Below are positions 1 to 31,556 of a stretch of DNA of 31,556 nt, piece after piece. This DNA is from a virus (Duplodnaviria; Heunggongvirae; Uroviricota; Caudoviricetes). Position 1 is the first letter of the stretch. The number at the start of each line of letters is the position of its first letter. Location of the stretch: positions 1-31,556 of IMG/VR virus record IMGVR_UViG_2917849834_000001; one strand, 5' to 3'. The notes under the pieces were generated by a model that saw only the letters and a list, made by a program, of their open reading frames with translations, did no database searches and was not told the DNA's origin. The position numbers were made by a program, and so were the translations under genes.

Positions 1-405
1 TTATTTTGGGGACCGGACTTTGCGCGAGGACTTGCCGGGCCGCTTTTTTACGATACTCACCCCGTAATCATTTTTCAGGACATTGATAACTGATTCAAAA
101 AACTCAGCTTTCTGGTTCGCCAGCTCAAGCTGCGTTTCAAGTTCCCTGATTCTTTGCTCGGGTGTGAGCGGGATAGTTGTCTGAGTCACAGGCAGTTTCC
201 TCTTCACCAGGTCAGGAAGTCCAGGACTCCAGTCAAGCCGGCCATATTTACGTAACCAGACAAGAACGGTGGAGCGCCCCTGAATGCCATACCGCTGCTG
301 GGCCTGTTTATAGGTCATCTCGCCTTTTTCAACCTGCTCAACAACAGCTATTTTAAAAGATAGAGGATAATCACGTTGGGTGCGTTTGAGCTCAGTCATC
401 ATCAC
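1..405 (-). mobile_element. IS-family transposase OrfA-like protein (HTH domain), 134 aa; only this ORF is in the window, remainder of the element would lie beyond position 1
   Basis: Complete ORF with RBS-like GGAGAA upstream of the ATG at 405; translation (LKRTQRDYPLSFKIAVVEQVEKGEMTYKQAQQRYGIQGRSTVLVWLRKYG, then coiled-coil-like ELETQLELANQKAEFFE) has the HTH plus leucine-zipper organisation typical of IS3-type OrfA proteins. Family assignment is from memory, not a search. Confidence 0.5.
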
Positions 406-4153: not shown

Positions 4154-4380
4154 TGGCTGATGCAATGGATCTCGTACAGCAGCGCGTTGAAGAAGAACGC
4201 CAGCGCCATATCCGTGCTGCCCGTGCCAAAACACCGGGCGTGTCTCGCGTGCTTTGCATTGAGTGTGAAGCGCCAATTCCGCCAGCACGCCGCCGTGCCA
4301 TTCCGGGTGTGCAGCTTTGCATTACCTGCCAGGAAATTGCAGAGCTGAAAGGCAAACATTACAACGGAGGTGCTGTATGA
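4153..4380 (+). CDS. TraR/DksA-family C4 zinc-finger protein
   Basis: 75 aa with CxxC...CxxC (CIECEAPIP...CITCQ) arrangement typical of phage TraR/DksA-like proteins (P2 orf82 class); start overlaps previous stop. Confidence 0.75.
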
Positions 4381-4679
4381 CAAGGGCAGTACGTATCCAT
4401 CAATTAAAAATTGCACCTAAGTATTTCAACGCTGTGGTTGCAGGTCAAAAGACGGCTGAACTTCGTAAAGACGATCGTGGCTATAAAGTTGGTGATGTTC
4501 TTTCTCTTTGCGAATGGAAGCATGGCGTATTTACGGGTAGAGAATGGGCTGCTGTTATCACTCATATACTTCCGGTTAATGACGTCATGGTAGTTTCAGA
4601 ACAATGGGTGATGCTATCAATTCGTCCATTAACCCCATTGGAAGCTTTAGGATATGTTATTGCAGGAGGTGCTGTATGA
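4377..4679 (+). CDS. DUF3850/ASCH-like small protein
   Basis: ATG at 4377 overlaps the TraR stop (ATGA); about 100 aa; assignment to the DUF3850/ASCH-like family is from memory of similar phage proteins. Confidence 0.5.
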
Positions 4680-8687: not shown

Positions 8688-9467
8688 ATGTATAATGCTT
8701 TTACTCTTCCCATATGGAGCCCTAACATGAATCGTTTGACTGAGATTGGTTTTATCAAGGTAGGATTCTGGCAGATTATAGACGGCAGCCTGAAATATCA
8801 TCTCGATGACAGATTCACAGATGTGAAGAACAACCTCTATGCATTTGTTTGTGATGGTGAGGTAAAGTACGTTGGTAAAACCACTCGTCTACTACGTAAC
8901 AGGATGTACCATTATTCACGTCCTGGCCCTTCCCAATCTACGAATATAAAAAATAACGCTAACATTATTGAGATGCTATCTAACAATGTTGCCGTAGATA
9001 TCTTGGTGCTTCCAGATTCAGGACTAATGCGCTATGGGCAATTTCACTTGAATCTTGCTGCTGGGCTTGAGGATTCAATCATTAGTCTTATCCGTCCTGA
9101 ATGGAATGGAATTCAGAGCCCAGTCTTGAAGAGTGAGGAATTAGTATCATCTGAAACTGAAATCATCACACATAGCAGTATCAAACAATTCACTTTCAAT
9201 ATGACAGATACGTACTGGCGTAGAGGATTCTTCAATGTGCCGGTAGTAAGTTCTCAACATTTTGGTAAAGACGGAGAGAACATTAAAATTGTTCTTCGTG
9301 ATGGTACGTCTTCCATCACTGCAATGATTAACCGAACTGCCAATCAGACTGGTTCACCCCGCATTATGGGGGGCGTTGAGCTCAGACAGTATTTTCAACT
9401 CAATTACATAATTGGTGATATCGTTCCTTTCGAAGTGATCACACAAAACATGATGAAGCTAAAATAA
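8688..9467 (+). CDS. GIY-YIG-like nuclease-domain protein with an uncharacterised C-terminal domain (possible B3/EcoRII-N-like DNA-binding fold); cargo gene
   Basis: 259-aa ORF with RBS GAGGAG; residues about 50-145 show GIY-YIG spacing (NLYAF ... KYVGKT ... RLLRNRMYHY ... E ... PEWN). Visibly AT-richer than flanking phage genes. Confidence 0.6.
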   Translation: MYNAFTLPIWSPNMNRLTEIGFIKVGFWQIIDGSLKYHLDDRFTDVKNNLYAFVCDGEVKYVGKTTRLLRNRMYHYSRPGPSQSTNIKNNANIIEMLSNNVAVDILVLPDSGLMRYGQFHLNLAAGLEDSIISLIRPEWNGIQSPVLKSEELVSSETEIITHSSIKQFTFNMTDTYWRRGFFNVPVVSSQHFGKDGENIKIVLRDGTSSITAMINRTANQTGSPRIMGGVELRQYFQLNYIIGDIVPFEVITQNMMKLK

Positions 9468-12933: not shown

Positions 12934-12951
12934 TGTGTGGTTGTCGGTACA
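12934..12951. promoter_or_regulatory. Late-promoter activator site TGT-N12-ACA in the P/O divergent region (Ogr/B-type zinc-finger activator target)
   Basis: TGTGTGGTTGTCGGTACA: TGT and ACA separated by 12 nt, the dyad characteristic of P2/186 late promoters, between divergent late operons. Confidence 0.5.
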
Positions 12952-13029
12952 AATACCGCGCATTGTTTCACTGCCCCCATCACCGCAACCATAAGGCTCC
13001 AGTAAGTTTTTTCTAACGGAGCACGGCTC

Positions 13030-13863: not shown

Positions 13864-13879
13864 TGGAGCACAAAACCTG

Positions 13880-14938
13880 ATGAAGAAGAATACCCGCTTT
13901 GCTTTTAACGCTTACCTGCAGCAGCTGGCACGTCTGAACGGTGTGGCAGTTGAAGAACTGTCCAGCAAATTCACCGTGGAGCCGTCTGTACAGCAGACGC
14001 TGGAAGACCAGATCCAGCAGTCCGCCGCTTTCCTGACGCTGATTAACGTCACGCCAGTGACTGAACAGTCCGGTCAGCTGCTGGGGCTGGGTGTTGGTAG
14101 TACCATTGCCGGAACCACTGATACCTCCGCGAAAGAGCGTGAACCCGTCGATCCGACCCTGATGGTCGATGTGGAATATAAATGCGAGCAGACCAACTTT
14201 GACACGGTGCTGACCTACGCGAAGCTGGATCTGTGGGCGAAGTTTCAGGATTTCCAGGTGCGTATCCGTGACGCCATCGTGAAACGTCAGGCACTGGACC
14301 GCATCATGATCGGCTTTAACGGCGTGAAGCGCGCGAAAACCTCTAACCGTAGCGAAAACCCGCTGCTGCAGGATGTGAACAAAGGCTGGTTGCAGAAAAT
14401 CCGTGAGGATGCACCGGATCACGTCATGGGAAGCACCACCACGGGCGGTGAAACCACACCGGGCGCAGTGAAAGTCGGCAAAGGTGGCGAATATGCCAAC
14501 CTGGACGCTGTAGTGATGGATGCGGTCAATGAGCTTATCGACGTGGTCTACCAGGACGATGACGATCTGGTGGTGATTTGCGGTCGTGAACTGCTGTCTG
14601 ACAAGTATTTCCCGCTGGTCAACAAAGAGCAGGAGAACAGTGAAAAACTGGCTGCAGATATGATCATCAGCCAGAAACGCATGGGTGGCCTGCAGGCCGT
14701 GCGTGCGCCGTTCTTCCCGCCGAATGCGCTGCTGATCACCCGTCTGGATAACCTGTCCATCTACTGGCAGGAAGACACCCGCCGCCGTTCAGTTATCGAC
14801 AACCCGAAACGTGACCGGATTGAAAACTTTGAATCCGTTAACGAAGCCTATGTGGTTGAGGACTACCGCTGCGCTGCACTGGTGGAAAACATCCAGATTG
14901 GCGATTTTAGCGCCGCCGCAGCAGAAGCCGGAGCGTAA
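13880..14938 (+). CDS. N: Major capsid protein (P2 gpN)
   Basis: 352 aa (P2 N is about 357), follows the scaffold gene. Confidence 0.88.
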   Translation: MKKNTRFAFNAYLQQLARLNGVAVEELSSKFTVEPSVQQTLEDQIQQSAAFLTLINVTPVTEQSGQLLGLGVGSTIAGTTDTSAKEREPVDPTLMVDVEYKCEQTNFDTVLTYAKLDLWAKFQDFQVRIRDAIVKRQALDRIMIGFNGVKRAKTSNRSENPLLQDVNKGWLQKIREDAPDHVMGSTTTGGETTPGAVKVGKGGEYANLDAVVMDAVNELIDVVYQDDDDLVVICGRELLSDKYFPLVNKEQENSEKLAADMIISQKRMGGLQAVRAPFFPPNALLITRLDNLSIYWQEDTRRRSVIDNPKRDRIENFESVNEAYVVEDYRCAALVENIQIGDFSAAAAEAGA

Positions 14939-14941
14939 CCC

Positions 14942-15592
14942 ATGAGCCTGAGTCCCGCACGGCAGCATCGCCTGCGCGTTCAGGCTGAACAGGCCGCCCG
15001 TGAGGGCGGCAGCGTTCGCCACGCGTCGGGCTATGACCTGATGCTGCTGCAACTGGCGGAAGACCGCCGCCGTCTCAAGGGCGTTCAGTCCACGGTCAAA
15101 AAAGCGGAAATCAAAGTGGAGCTGTTGCCGAAGTACGCCGCCTGGGCGGAGGGTGTTCTGGCTGCCGGAGGCGCTCAACAGGATGACGTGCTGATGTACG
15201 TGATGCTGTGGCGTATTGATGCCGGAGATTATGCCGGGGCGCTGGAGATCGGGCGTCATGCCCTGCGTCATGGCTGGGTGATGCCGCTGGGTAACCGCAA
15301 CGTGCAGACCGTGCTGGCAGAGGAAATGGCAGACGCCGCGCAGAGCGCAATACTTGCCGCCACCGGCTTTGATGCCGATCTGTTGTTGCAGACGCTGGAG
15401 CTGACAGACGGTCTGGATATGCCGGACCAGTCACGGGCGCGTCTGCATAAAGCGATTGGCGCTGTCCTGAGTGAAAGCAATCCGGCTTCCGCCCTTAATC
15501 ATCTCAACCATGCGTTACAGCTCGATCCCCGCTGTGGCGTGAAAAAAGACAAACAGCAGCTGGAGCGCAGACTGCGCAATGACAGCCGCTGA
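14942..15592 (+). CDS. M: Terminase small/endonuclease subunit (P2 gpM)
   Basis: 216 aa at the gpM position immediately after the capsid gene. Confidence 0.8.
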   Translation: MSLSPARQHRLRVQAEQAAREGGSVRHASGYDLMLLQLAEDRRRLKGVQSTVKKAEIKVELLPKYAAWAEGVLAAGGAQQDDVLMYVMLWRIDAGDYAGALEIGRHALRHGWVMPLGNRNVQTVLAEEMADAAQSAILAATGFDADLLLQTLELTDGLDMPDQSRARLHKAIGAVLSESNPASALNHLNHALQLDPRCGVKKDKQQLERRLRNDSR

Positions 15593-15687
15593 CAGAACGT
15601 GCCCCCGCGCACGGGCGGCACGGGGTGGCGAAAGGCACTGCCACATCAAAACCCCGTCCACCGCCCTCTATTTCAGGAGAAAGCAGC

Positions 15688-16152
15688 ATGAAGTTTGTTG
15701 CGCCAGAACAGGCACCGGAACAGGCGGAAATCATCAGGAATACGCCGTTCTGGCCTGATGTGGACTTGTCGGAGTTTCGCAGTGTCATGCGCACTGACGG
15801 CACGGTGACGCAGCCGCGTTTAAAGCAGGTTGCGCTGTCGGCAATTTCGGAGGTCAACGCAGAGCTGTATGAGTTTCGCAGACGTCAGCAGATGCTGGGG
15901 TATGCGTCGCTGGCTGAGGTTCCGGCGGAACAGCTGGACGGCAAAAGTGAGCGCATTCAGCACTATTTCAACGCGGTTTACTGCTGGGCACGCGCCATGC
16001 TCAACGAACGATACCAGGACTATGACGCCACGGCATCGGGTGTGAAGCGAGGCGAGGAACTGGCGGAAGCAAGCGGTGATTTGTGGCGTGACGCCCGCTG
16101 GGCCATCAGCCGGGTACAGGATGCGCCGCACTGCACAGTGGAGCTTATCTGA
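15688..16152 (+). CDS. L: Head completion/stabilisation protein (P2 gpL)
   Basis: ATG at 15688 preceded by CAGGAGAAAGCAGC; about 154 aa; the ORF-track start at 15625 lacks an RBS. Confidence 0.8.
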   Translation: MKFVAPEQAPEQAEIIRNTPFWPDVDLSEFRSVMRTDGTVTQPRLKQVALSAISEVNAELYEFRRRQQMLGYASLAEVPAEQLDGKSERIQHYFNAVYCWARAMLNERYQDYDATASGVKRGEELAEASGDLWRDARWAISRVQDAPHCTVELI

Positions 16153-16355
16153 TGAAAGTGCGTGCGCATCAGTATGACACGGTGGACGCGCTTTGCTGGC
16201 GTCATTACGGGCGCACGCAGGGTGTCACGGAGCAGGTACTGAAGGCAAACCCGGGGCTTGCCGAATACGGCCCCTTTTTACCTCACGGGCTGCAGGTGGA
16301 GCTGCCGGACATTCCGACTACCACCACCGTGCAGACCGTCCAGCTATGGGACTGA
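16152..16355 (+). CDS. X: Tail protein X (P2 gpX)
   Basis: 67 aa, the same length as P2 gpX; ATG overlaps the L stop. Confidence 0.8.
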   Translation: MKVRAHQYDTVDALCWRHYGRTQGVTEQVLKANPGLAEYGPFLPHGLQVELPDIPTTTTVQTVQLWD

Positions 16356-16358
16356 ATT

Positions 16359-16574
16359 ATGACGCTTGAGCGAATCAGCGCCTTTATCACGTATTGCATC
16401 GCCGTCGTGCTGGCCTGGCTGGGCGATTTGTCCATCAAGGATGCCTCAACGCTGGGCGGCCTGATGATCGGTGTGCTGATGCTGGCTATCAACTGGTACT
16501 ACAAACACAAAGCCTACCAGCTTCTGCGCGACGGGCAGATCTCGCGGGAGGACTATGAATCCATCAATCGTTAA
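16359..16574 (+). CDS. Holin, two-TMD class (pinholin-like)
   Basis: 71 aa with two hydrophobic segments (ISAFITYCIAVVLAWLG; LGGLMIGVLMLAINWYY) and a charged C-terminus; immediately upstream of the endolysin. Confidence 0.7.
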   Translation: MTLERISAFITYCIAVVLAWLGDLSIKDASTLGGLMIGVLMLAINWYYKHKAYQLLRDGQISREDYESINR

Positions 16575-17067
16575 ACGCTGCCTTATCGGGGCCGTGCTGG
16601 CTATTGCTGCCACGCTACCGGGTTTTCAGCAGCTTCACACCTCCGTGGAGGGGCTGAAACTGATTGCTGATTACGAAGGCTGTCGTCTGCAGCCGTATCA
16701 GTGCAGCGCGGGTGTCTGGACCGACGGCATTGGTAATACATGGGGCGTCATTCCCGGCAAAACAATCACGGAACGACAGGCAGCAGAAGGGCTGATCTCC
16801 AACGTGCTGCGTGTGGAGCGGGCACTGGAAAGGTGTGTGAAGCAACAGCCACCACAGAAGGTGTATGACGCTACGGTGTCGTTTGCCTTCAACGTGGGAA
16901 CTAGCAATGCCTGCAGTTCCACACTGGTGAAATTGCTCAATCAGCGGCGCTGGGCGGATGCGTGCCGACAGTTGCCGCGCTGGGTGTATGTAAAAGGTGT
17001 GTTTAATCAGGGGCTGGATAACCGCCGTGCGCGGGAGATGGCCTGGTGCTTACAGGGAGCAAACTGA
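16555..17067 (+). CDS. Endolysin (lysozyme-type), probably SAR (signal-anchor-release)
   Basis: 170 aa; N-terminal weakly hydrophobic segment CLIGAVLAIAATLPG followed by an E...D...T lysozyme catalytic region (ADYEGCRLQPYQCSAGVWTDGIGNT). Confidence 0.8.
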   Translation: MNPSIVKRCLIGAVLAIAATLPGFQQLHTSVEGLKLIADYEGCRLQPYQCSAGVWTDGIGNTWGVIPGKTITERQAAEGLISNVLRVERALERCVKQQPPQKVYDATVSFAFNVGTSNACSSTLVKLLNQRRWADACRQLPRWVYVKGVFNQGLDNRRAREMAWCLQGAN

Positions 17068-17068
17068 A

Positions 17069-17446
17069 ATGAAAAAGAAAGTAATCAGCGGACTGTTTCT
17101 GATGTTATGGATAGCGCTGTTAATCGCCGCAATGGTGTATCCGCAGGGGATTTTTCCGGTACTGGCAGCATCTGGTGTCTGGGTAGCCTGTCTGCTGACA
17201 TGGGCGGTAATTCCGGTATCACTGGCTGCGTTAATTAAGAACGGCCCGCTTTGGCAGGAGTTGAGGGCATCTTTGCTGAAGACAATTACCCGAAAAGAAA
17301 ACGTATTTATCAGCTGGATGATGCGATTGCTGATTGTCGTCAGTCTCGCCTGGACGGGGTGGGCTATTACCCTGGTCTTTTATCTACTGACCGTTATTGC
17401 CTTCTGGATCACCCGTAATCAGATGGCGCAACAGGTAGCAGCATGA
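17069..17446 (+). CDS. lysA: LysA-like lysis-timing membrane protein
   Basis: ATG at 17069 overlapping the endolysin stop; 125 aa with four hydrophobic segments. Confidence 0.65.
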   Translation: MKKKVISGLFLMLWIALLIAAMVYPQGIFPVLAASGVWVACLLTWAVIPVSLAALIKNGPLWQELRASLLKTITRKENVFISWMMRLLIVVSLAWTGWAITLVFYLLTVIAFWITRNQMAQQVAA

Positions 17447-17871
17447 ACCGGTTGCTGCTGGTTGTGCTGGCGTTATTACTGGCGGCGCTGGGCTGGCAGA
17501 CGTGGCGGCTGGCTGATGCCAGCCAGACCATCAGCACGCAGGCAGACGAGCTGCAGAGCAAAAGCCAGGCACTGGCAAAGAGCAACAGCCAGCTTATCAG
17601 CCTGTCCATTCTGACTGAAACCAATAACCGGGAGCAGGCGCGGCTCTATGCCGAAGCTGAACAGACCAGCGCACTGCTGAGACAACGACAACACCGGATT
17701 GAGGAACTGAAACGTGAGAACGAGGATTTACGCCGCTGGGCTGATACTCCTTTGCCTGCTGACATTATCCGGCTGCGGGAACGCCCCACACTCACCGGAG
17801 GTGCAGCTTACCGTCAGTGGTTGTCCGCGAGTGACGCCGTGTCGGTTGGGGCAGGCAGCGCCGCGCACTAA
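17443..17871 (+). CDS. lysB: i-spanin (LysB / Rz-like)
   Basis: 142 aa; N-terminal TMD (LLLVVLALLLAALGW) then coiled-coil periplasmic domain. Confidence 0.75.
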   Translation: MNRLLLVVLALLLAALGWQTWRLADASQTISTQADELQSKSQALAKSNSQLISLSILTETNNREQARLYAEAEQTSALLRQRQHRIEELKRENEDLRRWADTPLPADIIRLRERPTLTGGAAYRQWLSASDAVSVGAGSAAH

Positions 17872-18004
17872 CGGTGACCTGAACGCGTTGCTGGATGAAA
17901 CGGAGGCCGCCTGGGCGGTCTGTGCAGACAAAGTGGACATGATTATTGCGTGTCAGGAGAGAAACAGTGAACAAACCACAATCCCTGCGCCACGCCCTCA
18001 ATAA
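17714..18004 (+). CDS. lysC: o-spanin lipoprotein (LysC / Rz1-like), partly embedded in lysB in another frame
   Basis: 96 aa; lipobox LLTLSGC near the N-terminus; overlaps the 3' part of lysB out of frame. Confidence 0.7.
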   Translation: MRTRIYAAGLILLCLLTLSGCGNAPHSPEVQLTVSGCPRVTPCRLGQAAPRTNGDLNALLDETEAAWAVCADKVDMIIACQERNSEQTTIPAPRPQ

Positions 18005-18398
18005 AGCGGTGCCTTATGTCCGCAATAACCCGGACAAACTGCATCTGTTTGTGGATAACGGTTCGCTGGTTGCCACGGGGGCCAGCTCCATGTCGTGGGA
18101 GTACCGTTACACCCTGAACGCGGTGATTGAGGATTTCAGCGGCGACCAGAATCTGCTGATGGCCCCGGTTTTGCTGTGGCTGCGTGATAACCAGCCCGAT
18201 GCCATCAATAACCCGGCGTTACGGGAAAAGTTATTCACCTTTGAGGTGGATATTCTGCGCAATGATGTCTGTGATATCAGCCTGAACCTGCAACTGACGG
18301 AGCGTGTGCTGGTCAGCACTGACGGGAGTGTGTCGAGTGTTGAAGCGGTAGCGGAACCCGATGAACCTGATGAAATGTGGACGGTGAAACGTGGCTGA
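17946..18398 (+). CDS. R: Tail completion protein R (P2 gpR); start may be the GTG at 17966
   Basis: About 150 aa; KPQSLRHAL...LHLFVDNGS...VLLWLRDNQPD aligns with P2 gpR from memory. Confidence 0.8.
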   Translation: MRVRRETVNKPQSLRHALNKAVPYVRNNPDKLHLFVDNGSLVATGASSMSWEYRYTLNAVIEDFSGDQNLLMAPVLLWLRDNQPDAINNPALREKLFTFEVDILRNDVCDISLNLQLTERVLVSTDGSVSSVEAVAEPDEPDEMWTVKRG

Positions 18399-18837
18399 AC
18401 TGCAGAAGGTGGACGACTGGCTGAATGCCTTGCTGGCGAATCTGGAACCAGCCGCCAGAAGCCGCATGATGCGCCAGCTGGCGCAGGAACTGCGCCGGAC
18501 ACAGCAGCAGAACATCAGGATGCAGCGCAATCCTGATGGCAGCAGCTATGAACCGAGGCGAGTAACAGCACGCAGTAAAAAAGGCCGTATCAAACGTCAG
18601 ATGTTTGCAAAGCTGCGCACCACAAAATACCTGAAAACTGCCGCCAGCGCCGACTCTGCCAGCGTCCAGTTTGAAGGCAAGGTACAGCGCATTGCCCGTG
18701 TTCATCACTACGGCCTGCGCGATCGCGTCAGTCGTAAGGGACCGGAGGTCCGTTACGCAGAGCGTCGCCTTCTGGGTGTAAATGATGATGTTGAGGCAAT
18801 GACCCGTGACATGATTCTGCAATGGCTGGCGGGGTGA
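18391..18837 (+). CDS. S: Tail completion protein S (P2 gpS)
   Basis: 148 aa (P2 S is about 150) at the expected position, overlapping the R stop. Confidence 0.8.
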   Translation: MAELQKVDDWLNALLANLEPAARSRMMRQLAQELRRTQQQNIRMQRNPDGSSYEPRRVTARSKKGRIKRQMFAKLRTTKYLKTAASADSASVQFEGKVQRIARVHHYGLRDRVSRKGPEVRYAERRLLGVNDDVEAMTRDMILQWLAG

Positions 18838-18841
18838 TCTT

Positions 18842-18859
18842 TGTATCAGCACTGATACA
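18842..18859. promoter_or_regulatory. Late promoter activator site, perfect dyad TGTATCAGCACTGATACA (TGT-N12-ACA) upstream of gene V
   Basis: Perfect palindrome with TGT/ACA arms, about 50 nt upstream of the V start, the position of P2 promoter PV. Confidence 0.6.
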
Positions 18860-18905
18860 AGTTGCAGCACTGCCGCCTTTCTTCCCCTGATGGCAACCTT
18901 TCCCT

Positions 18906-19484
18906 ATGAACGCACAATTAACCGAAATCATGCGCCTTATCACCAATCTGATCCGCACAGGTGTAGTCACCGAAGTGGACCGGGAAAACTGGCTGTGTCG
19001 GGTGAAAACGGGCGACCTTGAAACTAACTGGATCAGTTGGCTGACGCTGCGTGCCGGGAATGCCCGCACATGGTGGCGACCATCGGAAGGTGAGCAGGTG
19101 GTACTGCTGAGTCTGGGAGGCAATCTGGAAACCGCCTTTGCGCTGCCCGCTGTCTATTCGAATCAGTTCGCGCCACCGTCGACGTCGGCGGAAGCCTGCG
19201 TGACAGAACATCCTGACGGTGGCTGGTTTGAATACGAACCCACCACCGGGCGCTGGTATGTCAGGGGCATCAAATCCATGGTCATTGAGGCTGCCGACAA
19301 CATAACCCTGAAAACCAGTGAGTTTGTACTGGATGCTGACCGCACACGTATTAACAGTGAAGTGGTGATCAATGGTGGCGTTACCCAGGGCGGCGGTGCA
19401 ATGAGTTCTAACGGGATCGTGGTTGATGCACATCAGCATACTGGCGTCCTGAAAGGCGGCGACACAACCGGAGGTCCGGTATGA
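18906..19484 (+). CDS. V: Baseplate spike/assembly protein V (P2 gpV)
   Basis: 192 aa at the P2 V position. Confidence 0.8.
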   Translation: MNAQLTEIMRLITNLIRTGVVTEVDRENWLCRVKTGDLETNWISWLTLRAGNARTWWRPSEGEQVVLLSLGGNLETAFALPAVYSNQFAPPSTSAEACVTEHPDGGWFEYEPTTGRWYVRGIKSMVIEAADNITLKTSEFVLDADRTRINSEVVINGGVTQGGGAMSSNGIVVDAHQHTGVLKGGDTTGGPV

Positions 19485-19840
19485 CGCTTTATAGCGGGAT
19501 GAACAATACCAGCGGTAAAGCCATTACTGATATTGACCATCTGCGCCAGTCGGTGCGGGACATTCTGCTGACACCGCAGGGTAGCCGTATTGCCCGTCGT
19601 GAATATGGTTCCCTGCTGTCGGCACTGATAGATCAGCCACAAAATCCGGCGTTACGCCTGCAGGTCATGTCGGCAGTGTATGTGGCGCTGAGTCGCTGGG
19701 AGCCACGGCTGACGCTGGATTCCATCACCATCAACAGCAATTTTGACGGTTCAATGGTGGTGGCGCTGACCGGGCGGCGTAATAACGGTGTGCCTGTGTC
19801 ACTTTCCGTATCAACAGGAGCAGAGAATGGCAGTGATTGA
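19481..19840 (+). CDS. W: Baseplate wedge protein W (P2 gpW, gp25-like)
   Basis: 119 aa (P2 W is about 115); start overlaps the V stop. Confidence 0.8.
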   Translation: MTLYSGMNNTSGKAITDIDHLRQSVRDILLTPQGSRIARREYGSLLSALIDQPQNPALRLQVMSAVYVALSRWEPRLTLDSITINSNFDGSMVVALTGRRNNGVPVSLSVSTGAENGSD

Positions 19841-20735
19841 CCTTTCGCAGTTGCCTGCGCCGCAGATTGTCGATGTGCCAGACTTTGAGACGCTGCTTGC
19901 CGAACGCAAGGCAGAATTTGTGGCGCTTCATCCGAAAGATGAGCAGGAAGCAGTGATGCGTACGCTGGAACTGGAATCTGAACCCGTCACTAAATTGTTG
20001 CAGGAGAACGCTTACCGTGAGTTGCTTCTGCGCCAGCGCATTAACGAAGCCGCGCAGGCGGTGATGGTGGCTTACGCGATGGGCGGCGATCTGGACCAGC
20101 TCGCTGCCAACTACAACGTGAAGCGCCTGACGGTGACGCCTGCTGATAATGACGCTGTGCCGCCCGTTGCGGCAGTGATGGAAAGCGATGAAGCGTTACG
20201 CCTGCGTGTGCCTGCAGCCTTTGAGGGGCTTTCAGTTGCGGGACCAACTGCCGCTTATGAATTTCATGCCCGAAGCGCCGACGGTCGGGTGGCGGATGCC
20301 AGTGCAACCAGTCCGGCACCTGCAGAGGTGGTACTGACTGTCCTGAGCCGTGAAGGCGACGGAACAGCAGAAAAAGATTTGCTGGATGTGGTGGAGAAAG
20401 CCCTGAACAGTGAGAATGTCCGCCCGGTGGCTGACCGTCTGACGGTTCGCAGCGCAGAAATCATCCCGTACCGCGTGGAAGCCACCATTTTTCTCTATCC
20501 GGGGCCGGAAGCAGAGCCGGTAATGGCTGCGGCAAAAGCCAGTCTGCAGAAGTACATCGCCAGTCAGACGCGGCTTGGCCGGGATATTCGCCGTAGTGCC
20601 ATCTTTGCCGCCCTGCATGTTGAGGGGGTGCAGCGTGTGGAGCTGGCTTCCCCGCTGGCGGATGTGGTCCTGAACAAAACACAGGCGGCATCATGTACGC
20701 AGTGGAGCGTAACCAACGGAGGAACGGATGAATAG
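19827..20735 (+). CDS. J: Baseplate assembly protein J (P2 gpJ)
   Basis: ATG at 19827 preceded by CAGGAGCAGAGA; about 302 aa, matching the P2 J size. Confidence 0.82.
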   Translation: MAVIDLSQLPAPQIVDVPDFETLLAERKAEFVALHPKDEQEAVMRTLELESEPVTKLLQENAYRELLLRQRINEAAQAVMVAYAMGGDLDQLAANYNVKRLTVTPADNDAVPPVAAVMESDEALRLRVPAAFEGLSVAGPTAAYEFHARSADGRVADASATSPAPAEVVLTVLSREGDGTAEKDLLDVVEKALNSENVRPVADRLTVRSAEIIPYRVEATIFLYPGPEAEPVMAAAKASLQKYIASQTRLGRDIRRSAIFAALHVEGVQRVELASPLADVVLNKTQAASCTQWSVTNGGTDE

Positions 20736-21333
20736 TCTGCTGCCACCGGGTTCAACACCACTGGAGCGCCGACTGGCGCAAACCTGCAGCGGGATTTCTG
20801 ATTTGCAGGTGCCTCTGCGTGACCTGTGGGATCCGGCTACCTGTCCGGTCAGTTTCCTGCCTTATCTCGCCTGGGCGTTCTCTGTGGATCGATGGGACGA
20901 GGACTGGACGGAAAGCGTCAAACGCCAGGTGGTAAAGGATGCCTTTTATATCCATCAGCATAAAGGAACCACCAGTGCCGTGCGGCGGGTGGTGGAGCCG
21001 TTCGGCTTTCTGATCCGCATTATTGAGTGGTGGCAGACCGGATAAGCACCCGGCACGTTTCGCCTGGACATTGGTGTGCAGGACCAGGGCATCACTGAAG
21101 ATACCTATCTGGAACTTGAGCGGCTGATAAGCGATGCCAAACCATGTAGCCGTCACATGATCGGCATGTCCATCAATCTGCAGACCAGTGGCCCGCACTG
21201 GGTGGGGGCCGCCAGTTATCTTGGCGAAGAAATCACGATTTATCCGTATATCAACGAAACGATTATTTCTGGCGGCACCGCGCATGAGGGCGGGGCAGTC
21301 CACGTTATTGACACAGTGAGAGTGAATCCATGA
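20728..21333 (+). pseudogene. I: Baseplate/tail protein I (P2 gpI) interrupted by an in-frame TAA at 21043-21045
   Basis: ORF 20728-21045 (EWWQTG, stop) and ORF 21076-21333 are in the same frame; translation across the stop continues APGTFRLDIGV, matching the middle of P2 gpI (about 176 aa as one protein). Confidence 0.6.
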
Positions 21334-22757
21334 GCACAAAATTTTATACCCTGCTGACGGAGATTGGTGCGGCGAAACTTGCCAGCGCCACTGCACTTGG
21401 TGTGCCGCTTAAAATTACCCATATGGCGGTAGGCGATGGCGGCGGAACATTACCAACGCCGGACGCAAAGCAGACGGCACTGGTAAATGAGAAACGCCGG
21501 GCTGCGCTGAATATGCTCTATATCGACCCGCAGAACAGCAGCCAGATTATTGCTGAACAGGTGATCCCCGAAAACGAGGGCGGTTGGTGGATCCGTGAAG
21601 TGGGCCTGTTTGATGAATCAGGGGCATTGATTGCCGTGGGAAACTGCCCGGAAAGCTATAAGCCGCAACTAGCTGAAGGCAGCGGGCGCACCCAGACCGT
21701 GCGCATGGTGCTGATTACCAGCAGTACCGATAATATCACACTGAAAATTGACCCTTCAGTGGTGCTGGCAACCCGCAAGTATGTGGATGACAAGGTGCTT
21801 GAGCTTAAGGTGTATGTGGATGACCTGATGGCAAAGCATCTTGCTGCTGCAGATCCTCATACGCAGTATGCGCCCAAAGACAGCCCAACATTGACTGGCA
21901 CGCCGAAAACGCCAACAGCACCGGCGGGAACTAACACGACTCAGATTGCTAGCACGGCATTTGTGCAGGCGGTGGTCACTGCGCTAAATAACGCACTGGC
22001 GTTGAAAGCTCCACTGGCAAGTCCGGCCCTGACCGGAACGCCGACGGCTCCGACTGCAGCGCAAACGGCGAACAATACGCAGATTGCCACCACGGCATTT
22101 GTGAAAGCGGCAGTTGCCGAGATGGTCGGTTCATCGCCGGAGGCGCTGGATACGTTAAATGAATTGGCTGCTGCGCTGGGGAATGATCCTAACTTTGCGA
22201 CAACAGTAATGAGTGCGCTGGCGGGAAAAATGAACAAAGCAGCTAATGGCGCTGATATTGCCGATGTTTCTGCTTTTCTAAAAAACCTTCATCTTGGGGA
22301 GGGCAGTGCGTTGCCAGTCGGTGTTCCTGTTCCGTGGCCTACTGCAATACCGCCGGAAGGTTGGTTGAAGTGTAATGGAGCATCATTCAGTTCCTCGCAA
22401 TATCCGAAACTGGCGCAGGTTTATCCGTCATTAAAATTACCAGATCTACGCAGTGAGTTTATTCGCGGCTGGGACGATGGGCGTGGCGTAGACGCTGGAC
22501 GTCAGGTTCTAACGTCTCAGACTGATGCTATGCAGCCGATTATCGGCTCCATTGGCTATGGTACAAACGGTATGTTTACTTATGCTGATGGAGCTTTTAC
22601 GGGTATAGATCGTGAAAGCGGAGACGGTATTGTTACACAGGCAACAAGCATCTCACAATATAAACAGGCTCACTTAGATTCAAGTACGATAACACGAACA
22701 GCGGCAGAAACACGTCCACGGAATATTTCATTTAATTACATTGTGAGAGCAGCATAA
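21330..22757 (+). CDS. H: Tail fibre protein (P2 gpH family) with variable C-terminal receptor-binding region
   Basis: N-terminus (MSTKFYTLLTEIGAAKLA...MAVGDGGG) matches P2 gpH; internal tandem repeats (about 21879-22140); the conserved LNELAAALGNDPNFATT block; C-terminal third unlike P2 and AT-richer. Confidence 0.85.
   Translation: MSTKFYTLLTEIGAAKLASATALGVPLKITHMAVGDGGGTLPTPDAKQTALVNEKRRAALNMLYIDPQNSSQIIAEQVIPENEGGWWIREVGLFDESGALIAVGNCPESYKPQLAEGSGRTQTVRMVLITSSTDNITLKIDPSVVLATRKYVDDKVLELKVYVDDLMAKHLAAADPHTQYAPKDSPTLTGTPKTPTAPAGTNTTQIASTAFVQAVVTALNNALALKAPLASPALTGTPTAPTAAQTANNTQIATTAFVKAAVAEMVGSSPEALDTLNELAAALGNDPNFATTVMSALAGKMNKAANGADIADVSAFLKNLHLGEGSALPVGVPVPWPTAIPPEGWLKCNGASFSSSQYPKLAQVYPSLKLPDLRSEFIRGWDDGRGVDAGRQVLTSQTDAMQPIIGSIGYGTNGMFTYADGAFTGIDRESGDGIVTQATSISQYKQAHLDSSTITRTAAETRPRNISFNYIVRAA
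21879..22140 (+). repeat. Two tandem copies of an about 40-aa tail-fibre repeat within gene H
   Basis: Protein segments SPTLTGTPKTPTAPAGTNTTQIASTAFVQAVV and SPALTGTPTAPTAAQTANNTQIATTAFVKAAV. Confidence 0.6.
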
Positions 22758-23378: not shown

Positions 23379-23420
23379 CCTCCCCCACACTGCCTATATG
23401 GTATGAATACGAGGGGGAGG
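23379..23420 (+). terminator. Possible hairpin after the tail-fibre operon
   Basis: CCTCCCCC ... GGGGGAGG 8-bp stem with about 26-nt loop, followed by a T-rich stretch; loop is long, so uncertain. Confidence 0.3.
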
Positions 23421-23480
23421 CTGTTTGTTGTCTGTTTCTGTGATAATATTAGATTCTCGTTTTTTAATAAAAAAATCAAT

Positions 23481-24491
23481 ATGAAAGAGAATAAAATACG
23501 TTCTGCCGATGGCGTGAGAGGTTTCGCTTTGATGATTGTTGTGGTGATGCATGCTACGGGACTATTCTTTCCCTCACTTCATGATCATCTTGGAGGTACG
23601 GGGCAGCCCGGTGTTTGGTTGTTTTTTGTTCTTAGCGCCTTTTTGTTGACACATAAATTTATTAATTCTGGTTTTTCGTTTTTGAATGTGTTGAGTTATC
23701 TTTTAGGGCGAACAATAAGGATATTACCGATTTTTTATATTGCAGTATTAATTTATTACCTTATGGGATTTTATGATTTAGAGAAAATGAAATCGATAAT
23801 TTCATTTGATAGTACTTACATCCATCTCTGGACTATTCCGATAGAATTCAAGTTTTACTTTTTGTTGCCGATTGTGGTTTATCTCGCATCTAGTATCCAG
23901 AAAGTTGCAGGTAGAAAATATTCTTTGTTGTTTTTGATATTGTTAACCTTAGCGTTCGCTTTTATATACCCTTATACGGATGACGAAATCAACGGTAGGC
24001 TACCGTATTATATTCCTGTTTTTATGTATGGAATTATAATTGCGTTTATGTATAACTATTTTCAAATTAAAATATCATCTCTCGTTAGTGATGGGGTGTC
24101 AATTGCGATTATATTAATATTTATAATGTTGACCCCTCCTTTTCAGGGGGCTAATGGTTGGCTGGGTAATAAATTTGTGGTATTAGGGCCATTTATTGCT
24201 CTCTTTGTATATCTGCAAGTAAATTCCAGTGGGTATGTAAGCGCGGTTTTATCTTCAAAAATCATGGCGGATTTGGGGAAATATAGTTTTTCAATTTATT
24301 TGTTTCATATAATGATAATTTTTATTGTTTATCCTAAATTTTTGGATAATGTTACTGCATACTTAGTTACTATAGCTTTATGTATTGGCGGTGGGGCTAT
24401 TGCCTATCATTGCATTGAATCTCCCTTGGAATCGTTCAGACATAAGCTTATGAAAAGAATAACGCAGGCTTATCAGAATCAAAATATTTAA
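23481..24491 (+). CDS. Acyltransferase family 3 (OafA/Oac-like) integral membrane protein; candidate lysogenic-conversion gene
   Basis: About 336 aa from the ATG at 23481; N-terminal RSADGVRGFALMIVVVMH motif typical of acyltransferase-3 proteins; about 10 hydrophobic segments; strongly AT-rich; located between G and FI. Confidence 0.75.
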   Translation: MKENKIRSADGVRGFALMIVVVMHATGLFFPSLHDHLGGTGQPGVWLFFVLSAFLLTHKFINSGFSFLNVLSYLLGRTIRILPIFYIAVLIYYLMGFYDLEKMKSIISFDSTYIHLWTIPIEFKFYFLLPIVVYLASSIQKVAGRKYSLLFLILLTLAFAFIYPYTDDEINGRLPYYIPVFMYGIIIAFMYNYFQIKISSLVSDGVSIAIILIFIMLTPPFQGANGWLGNKFVVLGPFIALFVYLQVNSSGYVSAVLSSKIMADLGKYSFSIYLFHIMIIFIVYPKFLDNVTAYLVTIALCIGGGAIAYHCIESPLESFRHKLMKRITQAYQNQNI

Positions 24492-26471: not shown

Positions 26472-26774
26472 ATGAGCGATAAGCAGACTGAAAAGACCAT
26501 TCAACTGGATACCCCCATCATGCGCGGTAAAACAGAAATTACCGAAATTGTGCTGCGTAAACCGCAGTCTGGTGCGCTGCGCGGCACACGCCTGCAGGCC
26601 ATTATGGATATGGATGTGAACGCGATGATGACCGTGATCCCCCGCATCTCCAGTCCGGCACTGACTGCACAGGAAATCGCAGAGATGGACCCGGCAGATC
26701 TCACTGCCATGTCGGTTGAGGTTGTCACTTTTTTGTTGAAGAAGTCGGTGCTTGCCGGTTTACCGACAGCCTGA
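26472..26774 (+). CDS. E: Tail assembly chaperone E (P2 gpE)
   Basis: 100 aa; contains the PRISSPALT...MDPADL block shared with P2 gpE. Confidence 0.8.
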   Translation: MSDKQTEKTIQLDTPIMRGKTEITEIVLRKPQSGALRGTRLQAIMDMDVNAMMTVIPRISSPALTAQEIAEMDPADLTAMSVEVVTFLLKKSVLAGLPTA

Positions 26775-26908
26775 CGGTTGACGATCTGGTGGCAGATATC
26801 GCCACCATCTTTCACTGGCCGCCATCCGTTACTGACGTTATGCCGCTGACCGAAGTGCTGGAATGGCGGTATAAAGCGATTCAGAGAAGCGGGGCCAGCC
26901 ATGAGTGA
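26472..26908 (+). CDS. E': Tail assembly chaperone frameshift product E+E' (programmed -1 frameshift at T-TTT-TTG, 26729-26735)
   Basis: Slippery heptamer positioned X-XXY-YYZ in the E frame; the -1 frame continues open for about 58 codons (…CRFTDSLTVDDLVADIATIFHWPPSV…) to a TGA at 26906-26908 overlapping the T start. Confidence 0.7.
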
Positions 26909-29900
26909 CAATAACCTGCGTCTGCAGGTGATTCTGAATGCGGTTGACAAGCTCACCCGCCCATTTCGATCCGCGCAGGCCAGTTCAAGAGAACTGGCTG
27001 CTGCTGTCAAAAAATCCCGCGATGCAATAAAGCAGCTTGATCAGGCCGGGAGCAGTCTGGACAGCTTCCGAAAGCTGCAGGCAGAAAATCAGAAATTAGG
27101 CGACAGGCTGAACTATGCCCGCCAGCGTGCAAATTTACTCAGTCATGAACTGGGATCAATGGGGCCGCCTTCGCAACGTCAGGTTGTTGCTCTGGGCCGT
27201 CAACGGCTGGCTGTTCAGCGCCTGGAAGAACGCCAGAAAAAGCTGCAGCAGCAGACGGCGCTTGTGCGTGCAGAACTTTATCGTGCTGGTATTTCAGCTA
27301 ATGATGGCGCCAGTGCGACGGCCCGCATTACCCGTGAAACGATGCGTTATAACAGGCAGCTTTCTGAGCAGGAAGCGAGGTTACGACGTGTCGGGGAGCA
27401 ACAGCGAAAAATGCACGCCGCCCGGGGGGCTTACGCCAGGCGTCTTGAAGTAAGGGATCGGATTGCAGGTGCCGGAGCCACCACCACGGCTGCAGGGCTG
27501 GCAATGGGCGCACCAGTGATGGCGGCAGTAAAAAGCTATACCAGCATGGAAGATGCCATGAAAGGTGTGGCAAAGCAGGTCAATGGTCTGCGTGACGATA
27601 ATGGCAACCGCACTGCGCGTTTTTATGAAATGCAGGATGCCATCAAGGCTGCCAGCGAACAGTTGCCGATGGAAAACGGTGCGGTGGACTTCGCCGCACT
27701 GGTTGAAGGTGGGGCGCGCATGAACGTCGCAAACCCTGACGACAGCTGGGAAGACCAGAAACGTGACCTGCTGGCCTTCGCCAGCACGGCGGCAAAGGCG
27801 GCAACAGCCTTTGAACTGCCAGCGGATGAACTGTCAGAAAGTCTGGGGAAAATCGCCCAGCTCTACAAAATCCCTACCCGCAATATTGAACAGCTCGGTG
27901 ATGCGCTGAACTATCTGGATGATAACGCCATGTCGAAAGGAGCGGACATCATTGATGTCATGCAACGCCTGGGCGGTGTGGCTGACCGTCTGGATTATCG
28001 TAAAGCGGCGGCGCTGGGTTCCACCTTCCTGACACTGGGCGCTGCGCCGGAGGTTGCAGCCAGTGCAGCAAACGCGATGGTGCGTGAATTGTCCATTGCC
28101 ACCATGCAAAGTAAGAGTTTCTTTGAAGGAATGAATCTGCTGAAACTCAATCCTGAAGTGATTGAAAAGCAGATGACGAAGGATGCGATGGGAACTATCC
28201 AGCGTGTGCTGGAGAAGGTGAACGCACTGCCGCAGGATAAGCGTCTGTCTGCCATGACCATGTTGTTTGGTAAAGAGTTTGGCGATGACGCGGCGAAACT
28301 GGCAAACAACCTGCCGGAACTGCAGCGCCAGCTAAAACTGACAGCGGGCAATGATGCGCTCGGCTCCATGCAGAAAGAATCCGACATTAACAAGGATTCA
28401 CTTTCTGCGCAGTGGTTGCTGGTCAAAACCGGAGCGCAGAACACCTTCAGCAGCCTGGGCGAAACGCTGCGCCAGCCGCTGATGGATATTCTGTACACGG
28501 TGAAAAGCGTCACGGGGGCGTTGCGCCGCTGGGTGGAAGCTAACCCGGAACTGACGGGCACACTGATGAAAGTAGCAGCGGTTGTGGCTGCGGTGACAGT
28601 GGGCCTCGGCACCTTAGCGGTGGTGTTGGCTGCAGTGCTGGGGCCGCTGGCAGTGATCCGTCTGGGATTCTCTGTGCTGGGTATCAAAACGTTACCTTCC
28701 GTTACGGATGCAGTAACACGAACCAGCAGCGCGTTGTCCGGGTTGGCAGGCGCGCCACTGGCAGTGCTTCGACGCGGGCTTGCTTCATCGGGGAGCACTG
28801 CGGGTTTACTTACTGCGCCGTTGTCGTCTTTGCGCCGCACGGCATCACTGACGGGGAATGTCCTGAAAACTGTAGCAGGTGCGCCGGTTGCACTATTGCG
28901 GTCTGGATTATCCGGTTTACGTGCTGTTGCTGTGATGTTTATGAATCCTCTGGCAGCACTACGCGGCGGGCTGACTGCCACAGGCGCGGTGCTTCGTGTG
29001 CTGGCATCCGGTCCGCTGGCGATGCTGCGCGTGGCCCTGTATGCCATATCTGGTCTGTTAGGTGCTCTGCTCAGTCCGATAGGTCTTGTGGTTACTGCAC
29101 TGGCAGGCGTGGCGCTGGTTGTCTGGAAATACTGGCAACCCATCACCGCATTTCTCGGTGGCGTGGTGGAAGGATTCAAAGCAGCGGCTGGTCCCATCAG
29201 TGCCGCATTCGAACCACTTAAGCCTGTGTTCCAGTGGATTGGAGACAAAGTGCAGGCGCTGTGGGGCTGGTTTACTGACCTGCTGACGCCTGTTAAGTCG
29301 ACCTCTGCCGAACTGCAGAGTGCAGCGGCAATGGGGCGACGATTCGGGGAGGCACTGGCGGAAGGGCTGAATATGGTCATGCATCCGCTGGACTCGCTGA
29401 AATCCGGCGTTTCCTGGTTGCTGGAGAAACTCGGCATTGTCAGTAAAGAGGCTGCAAAAGCGAAACTGCCGGAAAGCGTGACGCGTCAGCAACCTGCGAC
29501 GGTGAATGCAGACGGTAAAGTGATGATGCCATCGGGTGGTTTTCCGTCATGGGGATATGGCTTTGCGGGGATGTATGACAGCGGCGGGTATATCCCGCGC
29601 GGGCAGTTCGGCATTGTCGGTGAAAACGGGCCTGAAATTGTTAACGGTCCGGCAAACGTGACCAGCCGGAGAAATACAGCTGCACTGGCTGCGGTTGTTG
29701 CCGGAATGATGGGTGTTGCTGCCGCGCCAGCAGAGCTTCCACCGTTGCACCCTTTGGCACTTCCCGCGAAAGGCGGCGAAGCGATGGTGAGTCGCGCAGC
29801 TGCTGTGCCGCCCGTTCACCGGATTGAGGCACCGACGCAGATCATCATCCAGACGCAGCCAGGACAAAGTGCGCAGGATATTGCGCGGGAGGTGGCACGC

Positions 29901-29978
29901 CAGCTTGATGAACGTGAACGCAGACTGAAGGCAAAGGCCAGGAGTAACTACAGCGATCAGGGGGGATACGACGCATGA
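26901..29978 (+). CDS. T: Tail tape measure protein (P2 gpT)
   Basis: 1025-aa ORF with coiled-coil N-terminal part and Ala/Gly/Leu-rich hydrophobic repeats in the middle, after the E/E' chaperone genes. Confidence 0.88.
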   Translation: MSDNNLRLQVILNAVDKLTRPFRSAQASSRELAAAVKKSRDAIKQLDQAGSSLDSFRKLQAENQKLGDRLNYARQRANLLSHELGSMGPPSQRQVVALGRQRLAVQRLEERQKKLQQQTALVRAELYRAGISANDGASATARITRETMRYNRQLSEQEARLRRVGEQQRKMHAARGAYARRLEVRDRIAGAGATTTAAGLAMGAPVMAAVKSYTSMEDAMKGVAKQVNGLRDDNGNRTARFYEMQDAIKAASEQLPMENGAVDFAALVEGGARMNVANPDDSWEDQKRDLLAFASTAAKAATAFELPADELSESLGKIAQLYKIPTRNIEQLGDALNYLDDNAMSKGADIIDVMQRLGGVADRLDYRKAAALGSTFLTLGAAPEVAASAANAMVRELSIATMQSKSFFEGMNLLKLNPEVIEKQMTKDAMGTIQRVLEKVNALPQDKRLSAMTMLFGKEFGDDAAKLANNLPELQRQLKLTAGNDALGSMQKESDINKDSLSAQWLLVKTGAQNTFSSLGETLRQPLMDILYTVKSVTGALRRWVEANPELTGTLMKVAAVVAAVTVGLGTLAVVLAAVLGPLAVIRLGFSVLGIKTLPSVTDAVTRTSSALSGLAGAPLAVLRRGLASSGSTAGLLTAPLSSLRRTASLTGNVLKTVAGAPVALLRSGLSGLRAVAVMFMNPLAALRGGLTATGAVLRVLASGPLAMLRVALYAISGLLGALLSPIGLVVTALAGVALVVWKYWQPITAFLGGVVEGFKAAAGPISAAFEPLKPVFQWIGDKVQALWGWFTDLLTPVKSTSAELQSAAAMGRRFGEALAEGLNMVMHPLDSLKSGVSWLLEKLGIVSKEAAKAKLPESVTRQQPATVNADGKVMMPSGGFPSWGYGFAGMYDSGGYIPRGQFGIVGENGPEIVNGPANVTSRRNTAALAAVVAGMMGVAAAPAELPPLHPLALPAKGGEAMVSRAAAVPPVHRIEAPTQIIIQTQPGQSAQDIAREVARQLDERERRLKAKARSNYSDQGGYDA

Positions 29979-30459
29979 TGATGGTGCTGGGATTGTACGT
30001 GTTTATGCTGCGCACCGTACCGTATCAGGAGCTGCAGTATCAACGCAGCTGGCGACATGCGGCAAACAGTCGGGTAAATCGTCGTCCGTCCACGCAGTTT
30101 CTGGGACCGGACAACGACATGCTGACGCTTTCCGGTGTTCTTATGCCGGAGATAACAGGCGGCAGGCTGTCGTTGCTGGCACTGGAGCAGATGGCAGAAC
30201 AGGGGAAAGCATGGCCCCTGATTGAAGGCAGCGGCACGATTTACGGCATGTATGTGATTGAGGGACTGAATCAGACTAAAACGGAGTTTTCCGCGACGGT
30301 ATGCCGCGCCGGATTGAGTTCACCCTGTCGCTCAAACGGGTGGATGAATCCCTGTCCGATATGTTCGGTGATCTCAGTGCGCAGCTGAATAATCTGCAGG
30401 ACACGGCAACATCTGCATTAAGCGATATCAGTAAAACGGTGGGAGGGCTGCTGTCGTGA
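29975..30459 (+). pseudogene. U: Tail protein U (P2 gpU) with an apparent -1 frameshift (single-base deletion) at the T4 run 30287-30290
   Basis: Frame starting 29975 matches P2 gpU N-terminal half (WPLIEGSGTIYGMYVI) then ends at 30388; the -1 frame from about 30280 encodes the conserved C-terminal part (PRRIEFTLSLKRVDESL) and ends with a TGA overlapping the D start (GTGA, 30456-30459). Confidence 0.6.
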
Positions 30460-31556
30460 ATTTCAGCTCTGAACTGCTTAACAAAGGCAACAAAACTCCG
30501 GCATTCAGCATCAGTATTGAGGGCAGGGATATCACCACTGTGCTGGACAACCGCCTGATGGGGCTGACGCTGACGGATAACCGGGGCTTTGAAGCGGACC
30601 AGCTTGATCTGGAACTGGATGATGCCGATGGAAAAATCGTGCTGCCGCGTCGTGGTGCGGTCATTACGCTGGCGCTGGGATGGAAAGGGCAGCCACTTTT
30701 CCCGAAAGGGGCATTCACGGTGGATGAAATTGAACACACTGGCGCACCGGACCGCCTGACTATCCGGGCGCGAAGTGCTGATTTTCGGGAAACGCTGAAT
30801 ACCCGCCGTGAAAAATCGTGGCACAAGACCACTGTCGGGGAAGTGGTGAAGGAAATAGCTGCGCGGCACAAACTGAAGATGGCTCTGGGTAAAGACCTGT
30901 CTGATAAACCCGTGGATCATATAGACCAGACTAATGAGAGTGATGGCAGTTTTCTGATGCGGCTGGCGCGCCAGTACGGTGCTATTGCGTCGGTGAAAAA
31001 TGGCAATCTGTTATTTATCCGGCAGGGACAGGGTAAAAGTGCCAGCGGTAAACCACTGCCGGTGATCACTATCACACGTAAGGACGGCGACAGTCACCGC
31101 TTTACCCTGGCAGATCGCGGAGCCTACACGGGCGTCATTGCCAGCTGGTTGCATACCCGCGAACCCGCGAAGAAAGAAAACACTACGGTGAAGCGTAAGC
31201 GCAGGACCAAGAAGCCGAAGAAAGAGCCGGAAGCGAAGCAGGGCGATTACCTGGTGGGTACGGATGAAAACGTGCTGGTACTTAATCGCACTTATGCCAA
31301 CCGGAGCAACGCTGAACGGGCAGCGAAAATGCAGTGGGAACGCCTGCAACGCGGTGTTGCGTCATTCTCGCTACAACTGGCGGAAGGGCGGGCAGATCTC
31401 TACACGGAAATGCCTGTGAAGGTCATTGGCTTTAAACAGCCGATAGATGATGCGGAATGGACTATTACGACTCTGACACATACCGTCAGCCCGGATAACG
31501 GTTTTACGACCAGTCTGGAGCTTGAAGTGAAGATTGACGGTCTTGAAATGGAATAA
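30456..31556 (+). CDS. D: Tail protein D (P2 gpD, late-control/tail formation)
   Basis: 366 aa (P2 D is about 387), GTG start overlapping the U stop; stop codon at the window end. Confidence 0.85.
   Translation: MNFSSELLNKGNKTPAFSISIEGRDITTVLDNRLMGLTLTDNRGFEADQLDLELDDADGKIVLPRRGAVITLALGWKGQPLFPKGAFTVDEIEHTGAPDRLTIRARSADFRETLNTRREKSWHKTTVGEVVKEIAARHKLKMALGKDLSDKPVDHIDQTNESDGSFLMRLARQYGAIASVKNGNLLFIRQGQGKSASGKPLPVITITRKDGDSHRFTLADRGAYTGVIASWLHTREPAKKENTTVKRKRRTKKPKKEPEAKQGDYLVGTDENVLVLNRTYANRSNAERAAKMQWERLQRGVASFSLQLAEGRADLYTEMPVKVIGFKQPIDDAEWTITTLTHTVSPDNGFTTSLELEVKIDGLEME

Follow-up and report, generated by a model that had tools for sequence, protein, structure and literature searches.

The tail gene module and its surroundings

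The window, by which we mean the whole 31,556-nt stretch of DNA analysed here, holds a P2-like (Peduoviridae) prophage that is colinear with prophages of E. coli and with phages of the genera Elveevirus and Wadgaonvirus. Placement of 39 reference prophage proteins by tblastn gave the colinear tail gene order FI-FII-E-E′-T-U-D, and relatives are annotated alike. Within this set gpU alone is split, and the 37 proteins other than gpU and the product of gene I are encoded intact. The features that bear on the two interrupted genes, together with some further genes of the window, are collected in Table 1.

The last codon in the window is the gpD stop, and ogr and a 160-aa ORF, which lies between gpD and smpB in the flank, hence fall outside; the window is therefore not the whole prophage. 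The opposite boundary falls at the stop codon of orfA, which belongs to an IS3-family transposase (HTH_28); here the gene table of the deposited contig has a product of 418 aa that reaches past the window, as would fit a frameshifted orfAB fusion. A gene for a 362-aa Acyl_transf_3 acyltransferase, which is likely to be lysogenic-conversion cargo, lies between G (tail-fibre assembly) and FI (sheath); some relatives have at this position an acyltransferase on the other strand, or an invertase/fibre cassette. DinI and the portal gene enclose a variable region (8545-10112) with a 259-aa ORF that gave no match to Pfam or PADLOC and a weak match to PHROG 1111 'endonuclease' (E = 1.4e-9); the variable cargo position of P2-like phages often holds defence genes. 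A DUF3850/ASCH-domain gene between a TraR-like gene and dam is lacking in L126 and L127, the E. coli prophages closest to this one, but occurs in four other loci (L138-L140 and L142).

Table 1. Positions in the window of the interrupted genes, their neighbours and other features named in the text
Feature	Position	Strand	Remarks
IS3-family transposase orfA	1..405	-	HTH_28
DUF3850/ASCH-domain gene	4317..4679	+	
259-aa ORF	8688..9467	+	in variable region
Gene I, baseplate wedge / fibre-anchoring protein	20728..21333	+	in-frame TAA at 21043-21045; GAA (Glu106) in four relatives
Acyl_transf_3 acyltransferase	23403..24491	+	362 aa
T_TTT_TTG slippery heptamer, tail-chaperone genes E/E+E′	26729..26735	+	intact; internal positive control
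E′ ORF	26789..26905		
gpT tape-measure gene	26901..29978	+	intact; stop overlaps gpU start (ATGA)
Frameshifted gpU ORF	29975..30388	+	137 aa; PF06995 profile positions 1-102 of 120
T4 homopolymer, one-base deficit	30287..30290	+	T5 in relatives
gpU C-terminal 56 codons (residues 106-161), -1 frame	30289..30459	+	TGA end within GTGA overlap with gene D
gpD baseplate hub gene	30456..31556	+	intact, 366 aa; window ends at gpD stop codon

In the record, the gpU gene lacks one T of a Phe-Phe codon pair

The reading frame that opens at the gpU ATG encodes residues 1-105 of native gpU (29975-30289), after which it runs on for 32 out-of-frame residues to a stop at 30386-30388; the rest of the protein, FRDGMPRRIEFTLSLKRVDE...GGLLS, is encoded in the -1 frame. 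The break falls in a run that reads TTTT in the window. In relatives the corresponding T5 forms the codons TTT TTC for two phenylalanines, close relatives reading FFRDG at this site, and the window is short by one base there. All five aligned relatives (two E. coli prophages and the phages 500465-1, Cartapus and 4LV2017) have T5 and a single ORF of 486 nt, and the missing T is the sole gap across the 182 columns of the alignment of these five with the window. The earlier note had proposed both that the gpU frame switches by -1 at 30287-30290, with an upstream stop at 30388 and the C-terminus in the -1 frame, and that one T is missing from the TTT-TTC pair, and the alignment to intact relatives bears out both points. 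Its description of the overlap with gene D as ATGA-type needs correction: the overlap is GTGA, gene D starting with GTG at 30456, and it is the T/U junction (29975-29978) that reads ATGA.

Addition of one T yields a gpU of 161 aa that is identical to a common E. coli prophage protein, and each of the two halves is 100% identical to the corresponding part of the 161-aa BE2-5 gpU (WP_000980391.1). In place of a single uninterrupted ORF of about 160 codons, the window has one that is split at 30289/30290, against 161 aa in all relatives; the intact protein was found on at least 1000 contigs. Downstream of the break, one relative (L121) shows zero differences from the window, and the nearest relatives with any change (L062, L001 and L126) show 2-3 substitutions, all of them synonymous. 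Such a lack of decay past the break fits a sequencing artefact or a very young mutation equally well.

The restored 161-aa protein matches the Pfam family PF06995 (Phage_P2_GpU) over the entire profile, from position 1 to 120 (150.5 bits, where 27.5 is the cutoff; E = 2e-44), and it also matches PHROG 76 'tail protein' (E = 6e-84) and residues 159-287 of PA0626 (E = 8.5e-7). PA0626, the 'ripcord' of an R-type pyocin (PDB 6u5b), is the sole gpU relative with a solved structure, and the pyocin homologue has since been renamed baseplate central protein (PMC10811340). According to a 2026 cryo-EM preprint on P2, gpU is the tube initiator and stands in six copies between the tail tube and the hub, a trimer of gpD, and the C-terminal helix of gpU touches the wedge (bioRxiv 10.64898/2026.09.14.750843). 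The gene in the window resembles P2 gpU and PA0626 in its full-profile match to PF06995 and in the T-U-D order with overlapping stops and starts, but differs from them in being split at codon 105/106. A break after residue 105 removes profile positions 103-120 along with the wedge-contact helix, and, if it is real, the protein should be non-functional.

The record derives from an assembly made with Ion Torrent reads only

The window is 100% identical to positions 22903-54458 of the contig PDIA01000049.1 (76,090 bp; GCA_004745155.1), in which the T run lies at 53189-53192. For the NCBI contig, the listing gives 4 samples in which it occurs. [quoted passage not shown] The chromosomal flanks of the prophage are about 96% identical to E. 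coli, fitting a cryptic clade. Ion Torrent's characteristic error is a miscalled homopolymer length. When Illumina and Ion Torrent data of the same strains were compared, a mean of 14.5 core alleles per 1,748 loci were discrepant, and of the variants 77% were deletions and 13% mismatches, the mean length of the affected homopolymer being 5.5 (PMC12046094). A T5-to-T4 deletion is the modal Ion Torrent error. The gpU lesion thus resembles the undercalls of Ion Torrent and 454-type platforms in that one base is gone from a 5-nt homopolymer, the assembly rests on Ion Torrent reads alone and the displaced frame is kept in full, and in that the same class of deletion occurs in a second assembly of the strain and in a neighbouring core gene (see below). 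It differs from them in that both assemblies agree on the short gpU run and in that the deposit is otherwise accurate at homopolymers. The likeness is one of class and does not prove an error at this particular site.

Calibration of the deposited and Logan assemblies

There are 137 homopolymer runs of at least 5 nt in the window. For 96 of them, 31 of these being at least 6 nt long, an alignment to intact relatives is possible, and in every case at least one intact relative has a run of equal length; among the 97 alignable sites (these 96 runs and the gpU run), the gpU T run is the only one whose length is private to the window. At the DNA level, positions 10112-21972 align gap-free to two E. 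coli prophages. In the flanks of the deposited contig, GabP, GabT, GabD, LhgO, GlaH, SmpB, RatA, YfjF, BamE, RecN, NadK, GrpE and YfjD are all intact. In the core gene ypjD, about 9.4 kb downstream of the window (PDIA01000049.1 ~63877; L136 ~20520), the loss of one base (TTTAAC>TTTAC) interrupts the frame; the 21 C-terminal residues thereby displaced show 100% conservation, and the three substitutions that follow the deletion are synonymous without exception. A scan of genome contigs for the deleted and undeleted ypjD alleles matched neither. Two origins come into question for the ypjD split: an Ion Torrent error left in the consensus, or a pseudogene specific to the strain or the clade.

A further view of the same strain came from the Logan contigs of run SRR6148340 (SRX3260360), which overlap the deposit over 29.3 kb and are identical to it except at 4 sites; given this identity, they almost certainly derive from the Ion Torrent reads of E4702. 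All four differences are single-base deletions in the Logan contigs (AA>A twice, GGG>GG and A5>A4), located within PDIA01000049.1 16377-30476 (L144 at 2751 and 6784, and L148 in gpA and int). They break glaH, gabT and gpA and lengthen int, all of which are intact in the deposit. In the reads of E4702 such deletions are therefore frequent enough to prevail in a k-mer assembly at a rate of about one in 7 kb, and the pipeline of the original authors removed most of them, not necessarily all. We rejected the agreement of the two assemblies as independent proof of T4, because they almost certainly share the same reads and the Logan assembly is more error-prone than the deposit. Logan assemblies of Ion Torrent runs are unfit to corroborate frameshifts.

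The T4 allele is absent from the complete E. coli records searched

An exact search with a 68-mer carrying T4 found it in 0 of 1,044 complete-genome E. coli records. In IMG/VR the T4 31-mer occurred on no contig, against at least 120 contigs with the T5 32-mer, and no GTDB species representative had the T4 allele. The exact 137-aa product was found only in the two assemblies of strain E4702 and on one noisy contig that is 95.6% identical, and the exact gpD of the prophage was found only in strain E4702. At 90% identity, the 137-aa product falls into a cluster of 22 distinct sequences; nearly all of the 15 members listed are 137 aa long, and 13 of these 15 share the junction TKTEF|SATV on different amino-acid backgrounds. 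By comparison, 1,907 members make up the cluster of intact gpU, and several of these each occur on 1000 contigs or more. The DNA of two other T4 carriers was readable. One (L132, from SRR12298613) has 4 further one-base deletions in 1.35 kb, and the other (L143, a gut-metagenome node with a coverage of 1.33) has about 20 one-base indels in 4.4 kb. Two more cluster members (P0003 and P0014) have indels in the adjacent A run.

The stop codon in gene I is a substitution

The earlier note had coupled the gpU break with a stop in gene I. This stop is real in the record: the TAA, which replaces the GAA of relatives and corresponds to positions 43945-43947 of PDIA01000049.1, lies within three substitutions in 10 bp (GGAGAAACACCG>GGATAAGCACCC) and truncates the protein at 105 of 201 aa, and it is present in both E4702 assemblies. 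It cannot be pooled with the gpU lesion as a homopolymer error, since it arises by a G-to-T substitution and not by an indel; it is not a typical error of the platform, though mismatches make up 13% of Ion Torrent discrepancies (PMC12046094). In P2, gpI is a wedge subunit whose C-terminus holds the tail fibre (bioRxiv 10.64898/2026.09.14.750843), and loss of this part through truncation at residue 105 of 201 should therefore be disabling. The prophage may thus really be defective through gene I.

A second gpI of 105 aa with the same end residue (P0018, carrying D35N) is present at NCBI and JGI (TFX17870.1 / WP_135271767.1 / MDZ3977492.1, annotated 'partial'); its end may reflect a contig that ends at the variant base rather than a shared stop. 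Searches with TAA patterns did not find the gene I TAA haplotype in IMG/VR, a 75-mer around the stop was not found in complete E. coli genomes, and an 85-aa gene I fragment revealed no sharers of the lesions beyond strain E4702.

A residual sequencing error or a recent mutation

We consider it probable that Ion Torrent sequencing undercalled the homopolymer and that the error was carried over into the consensus deposited for E4702. In that case the strain's own gpU would have TTTTT and would be an intact tube-initiator gene of the ordinary kind, encoding 161 aa. Several results point this way: the sequence comes from a flow-based platform without polishing by another; a one-base homopolymer change displaces 56 residues that match intact gpU at 100% identity; the read set gave further errors of this kind, namely 4 Logan deletions in 29.3 kb, to which the ypjD deletion in the deposit can be added; gpU is free of decay; and the two other readable T4 carriers are plainly noisy. 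From the provenance, the platform, the occurrence of such errors in the read set and the lack of T4 in clean data, we infer that the gpU site in particular is one of the residual errors. Set against this are the deposited consensus itself, which is clean at 96 of 96 other alignable runs and in which no other of the 39 prophage genes is frameshifted, and the occurrence of T4 in both the deposited and the Logan assemblies. Most reads presumably signal T4, which is what one expects of a real mutation; for an artefact to give this, the site would have to be strongly biased. In addition, the gene I nonsense mutation makes relaxed selection on the tail genes plausible, and the ypjD lesion could itself be real.

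The main competing explanation, which we hold to be possible though distinctly the less likely, is a real and very recent loss of function, in which slippage during replication shortened T5 to T4 in the E4702 prophage. This prophage would then encode a gpU without the last strands of the tube-like domain and without the wedge helix and, with the nonsense mutation in gene I, would be tail-less and decaying. That two assemblies call T4 is the main point for such a mutation, yet their reads are very probably shared and the calls are hence not independent. The accuracy of the deposit at the 96 other alignable runs of at least 5 nt also favours it, as do the independent G>T nonsense change at 21043 in gene I, seen in both assemblies, and the fact that the allele is private to E4702, as expected of a dead-end mutation; a truncation at residue 105 should disable gpU, given its hub-tube-wedge role in P2. 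On the other side, the E4702 read set demonstrably produces identical lesions, there is zero secondary decay downstream of the break, and the only other T4 carriers inspected are artefacts. If real, the lesion would liken the prophage to defective P2-like prophages with pseudogenised tail genes, as a private frameshift in an essential tail gene accompanied by a nonsense mutation in gene I. It differs from older defective prophages, which usually bear such marks, in that deletions and IS insertions are missing and non-synonymous changes have not built up.

The two explanations can also be compared through the number of events that each would lead one to expect, given one private indel in the prophage. 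Consensus indels left by the platform would amount to about 0.3-0.8 per 31.5 kb at the published rate, or to about 1.7 if the ypjD lesion is an error, and real new frameshifts were taken as about 0.1-0.5, given possible relaxed selection; this is rough reasoning and not a measurement. Residual Ion Torrent indels (about 0.3-1.7 per 31 kb) are by this reckoning expected at least as often as new real frameshifts, which counts against the latter. Of the two possibilities that the earlier note had left side by side, a decaying prophage and a homopolymer error, both survive, and the weight moves to sequencing error on account of the Ion Torrent provenance, the single-base deletions in Logan and the noise in the other T4 carriers. 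To everything besides an artefact and a real recent frameshift we assign only a very slight share of the probability.

Unlikely alternatives: a recurrent hotspot or programmed recoding

The different backgrounds on which the TKTEF|SATV junction recurs in 13 of the 15 listed members of the 22-sequence cluster could be read as a sign that the T5 run of gpU is a real slippage hotspot, at which P2-like prophages are repeatedly and independently disarmed. We think this highly improbable: both members with readable DNA (L132 and L143) are laden with errors, the neighbouring homopolymer indels of P0003 and P0014 are typical of noisy platforms, and the intact cluster numbers 1,907 members while T4 was found in 0 of 1,044 complete-genome records. 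The recurrence of T4 across backgrounds as a natural allele is accordingly unsupported, both carriers with readable DNA being noisy. Were the hotspot true, P2-like prophages of Enterobacteriaceae would become tail-less yet still give immunity and lysogenic conversion, and E4702 would be one such event atop its gene I nonsense mutation.

We also reject programmed recoding, in which full-length gpU, possibly with a truncated product besides, would arise from the split gene through a -1 shift of the ribosome, or slippage during transcription, at the T run. The downstream frame is indeed -1 relative to the upstream frame, the break lies inside a T run, and P2-like phages use a programmed -1 frameshift at E/E+E′ in the same operon; however, T5 and one continuous ORF are found in every relative examined, and the fetched loci include 123 gap-free full-length comparators. 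No X_XXY_YYZ heptamer occurs anywhere in the zero frame of gpU, whereas the same scan recovers T_TTT_TTG in gene E, the known programmed -1 site of P2-type tail chaperones. By inspection of the sequence, pairing at the codons GAG_TTT_TCC would not be regained once the frame had slipped by -1, and the predicted folding energy of the RNA downstream (MFE -32.8 kcal/mol) is close to that of shuffled sequences (mean -30.4; z = -0.71). Four T's are also far below the run lengths known for transcriptional slippage. The gpU site shares with the P2 E/E+E′ frameshift, which is analogous to lambda G/GT, its operon, the -1 direction and a T-rich character, but has neither the canonical heptamer nor the conserved two-ORF arrangement of the latter, the E and E′ ORFs both being annotated in all relatives. 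A conserved programmed frameshift at this site in relatives, raised in the earlier note, was looked for and not found; with heptamer, downstream structure and conservation all wanting, neither programmed frameshifting nor transcriptional slippage accounts for the break.

Implications

None of the surviving explanations implies anything new, and the biological weight of the finding is small. If the gpU frameshift is a real mutation, it is an ordinary inactivating one that involves no new mechanism, and it could predict that E4702 releases no infectious P2-like particles. If, as we favour, the missing T is a sequencing artefact, then frameshifts in the E4702 record and in its 15 sister Ion Torrent assemblies (PRJNA412557) are not safe to read as prophage decay or pseudogenisation unless the reads bear them out.
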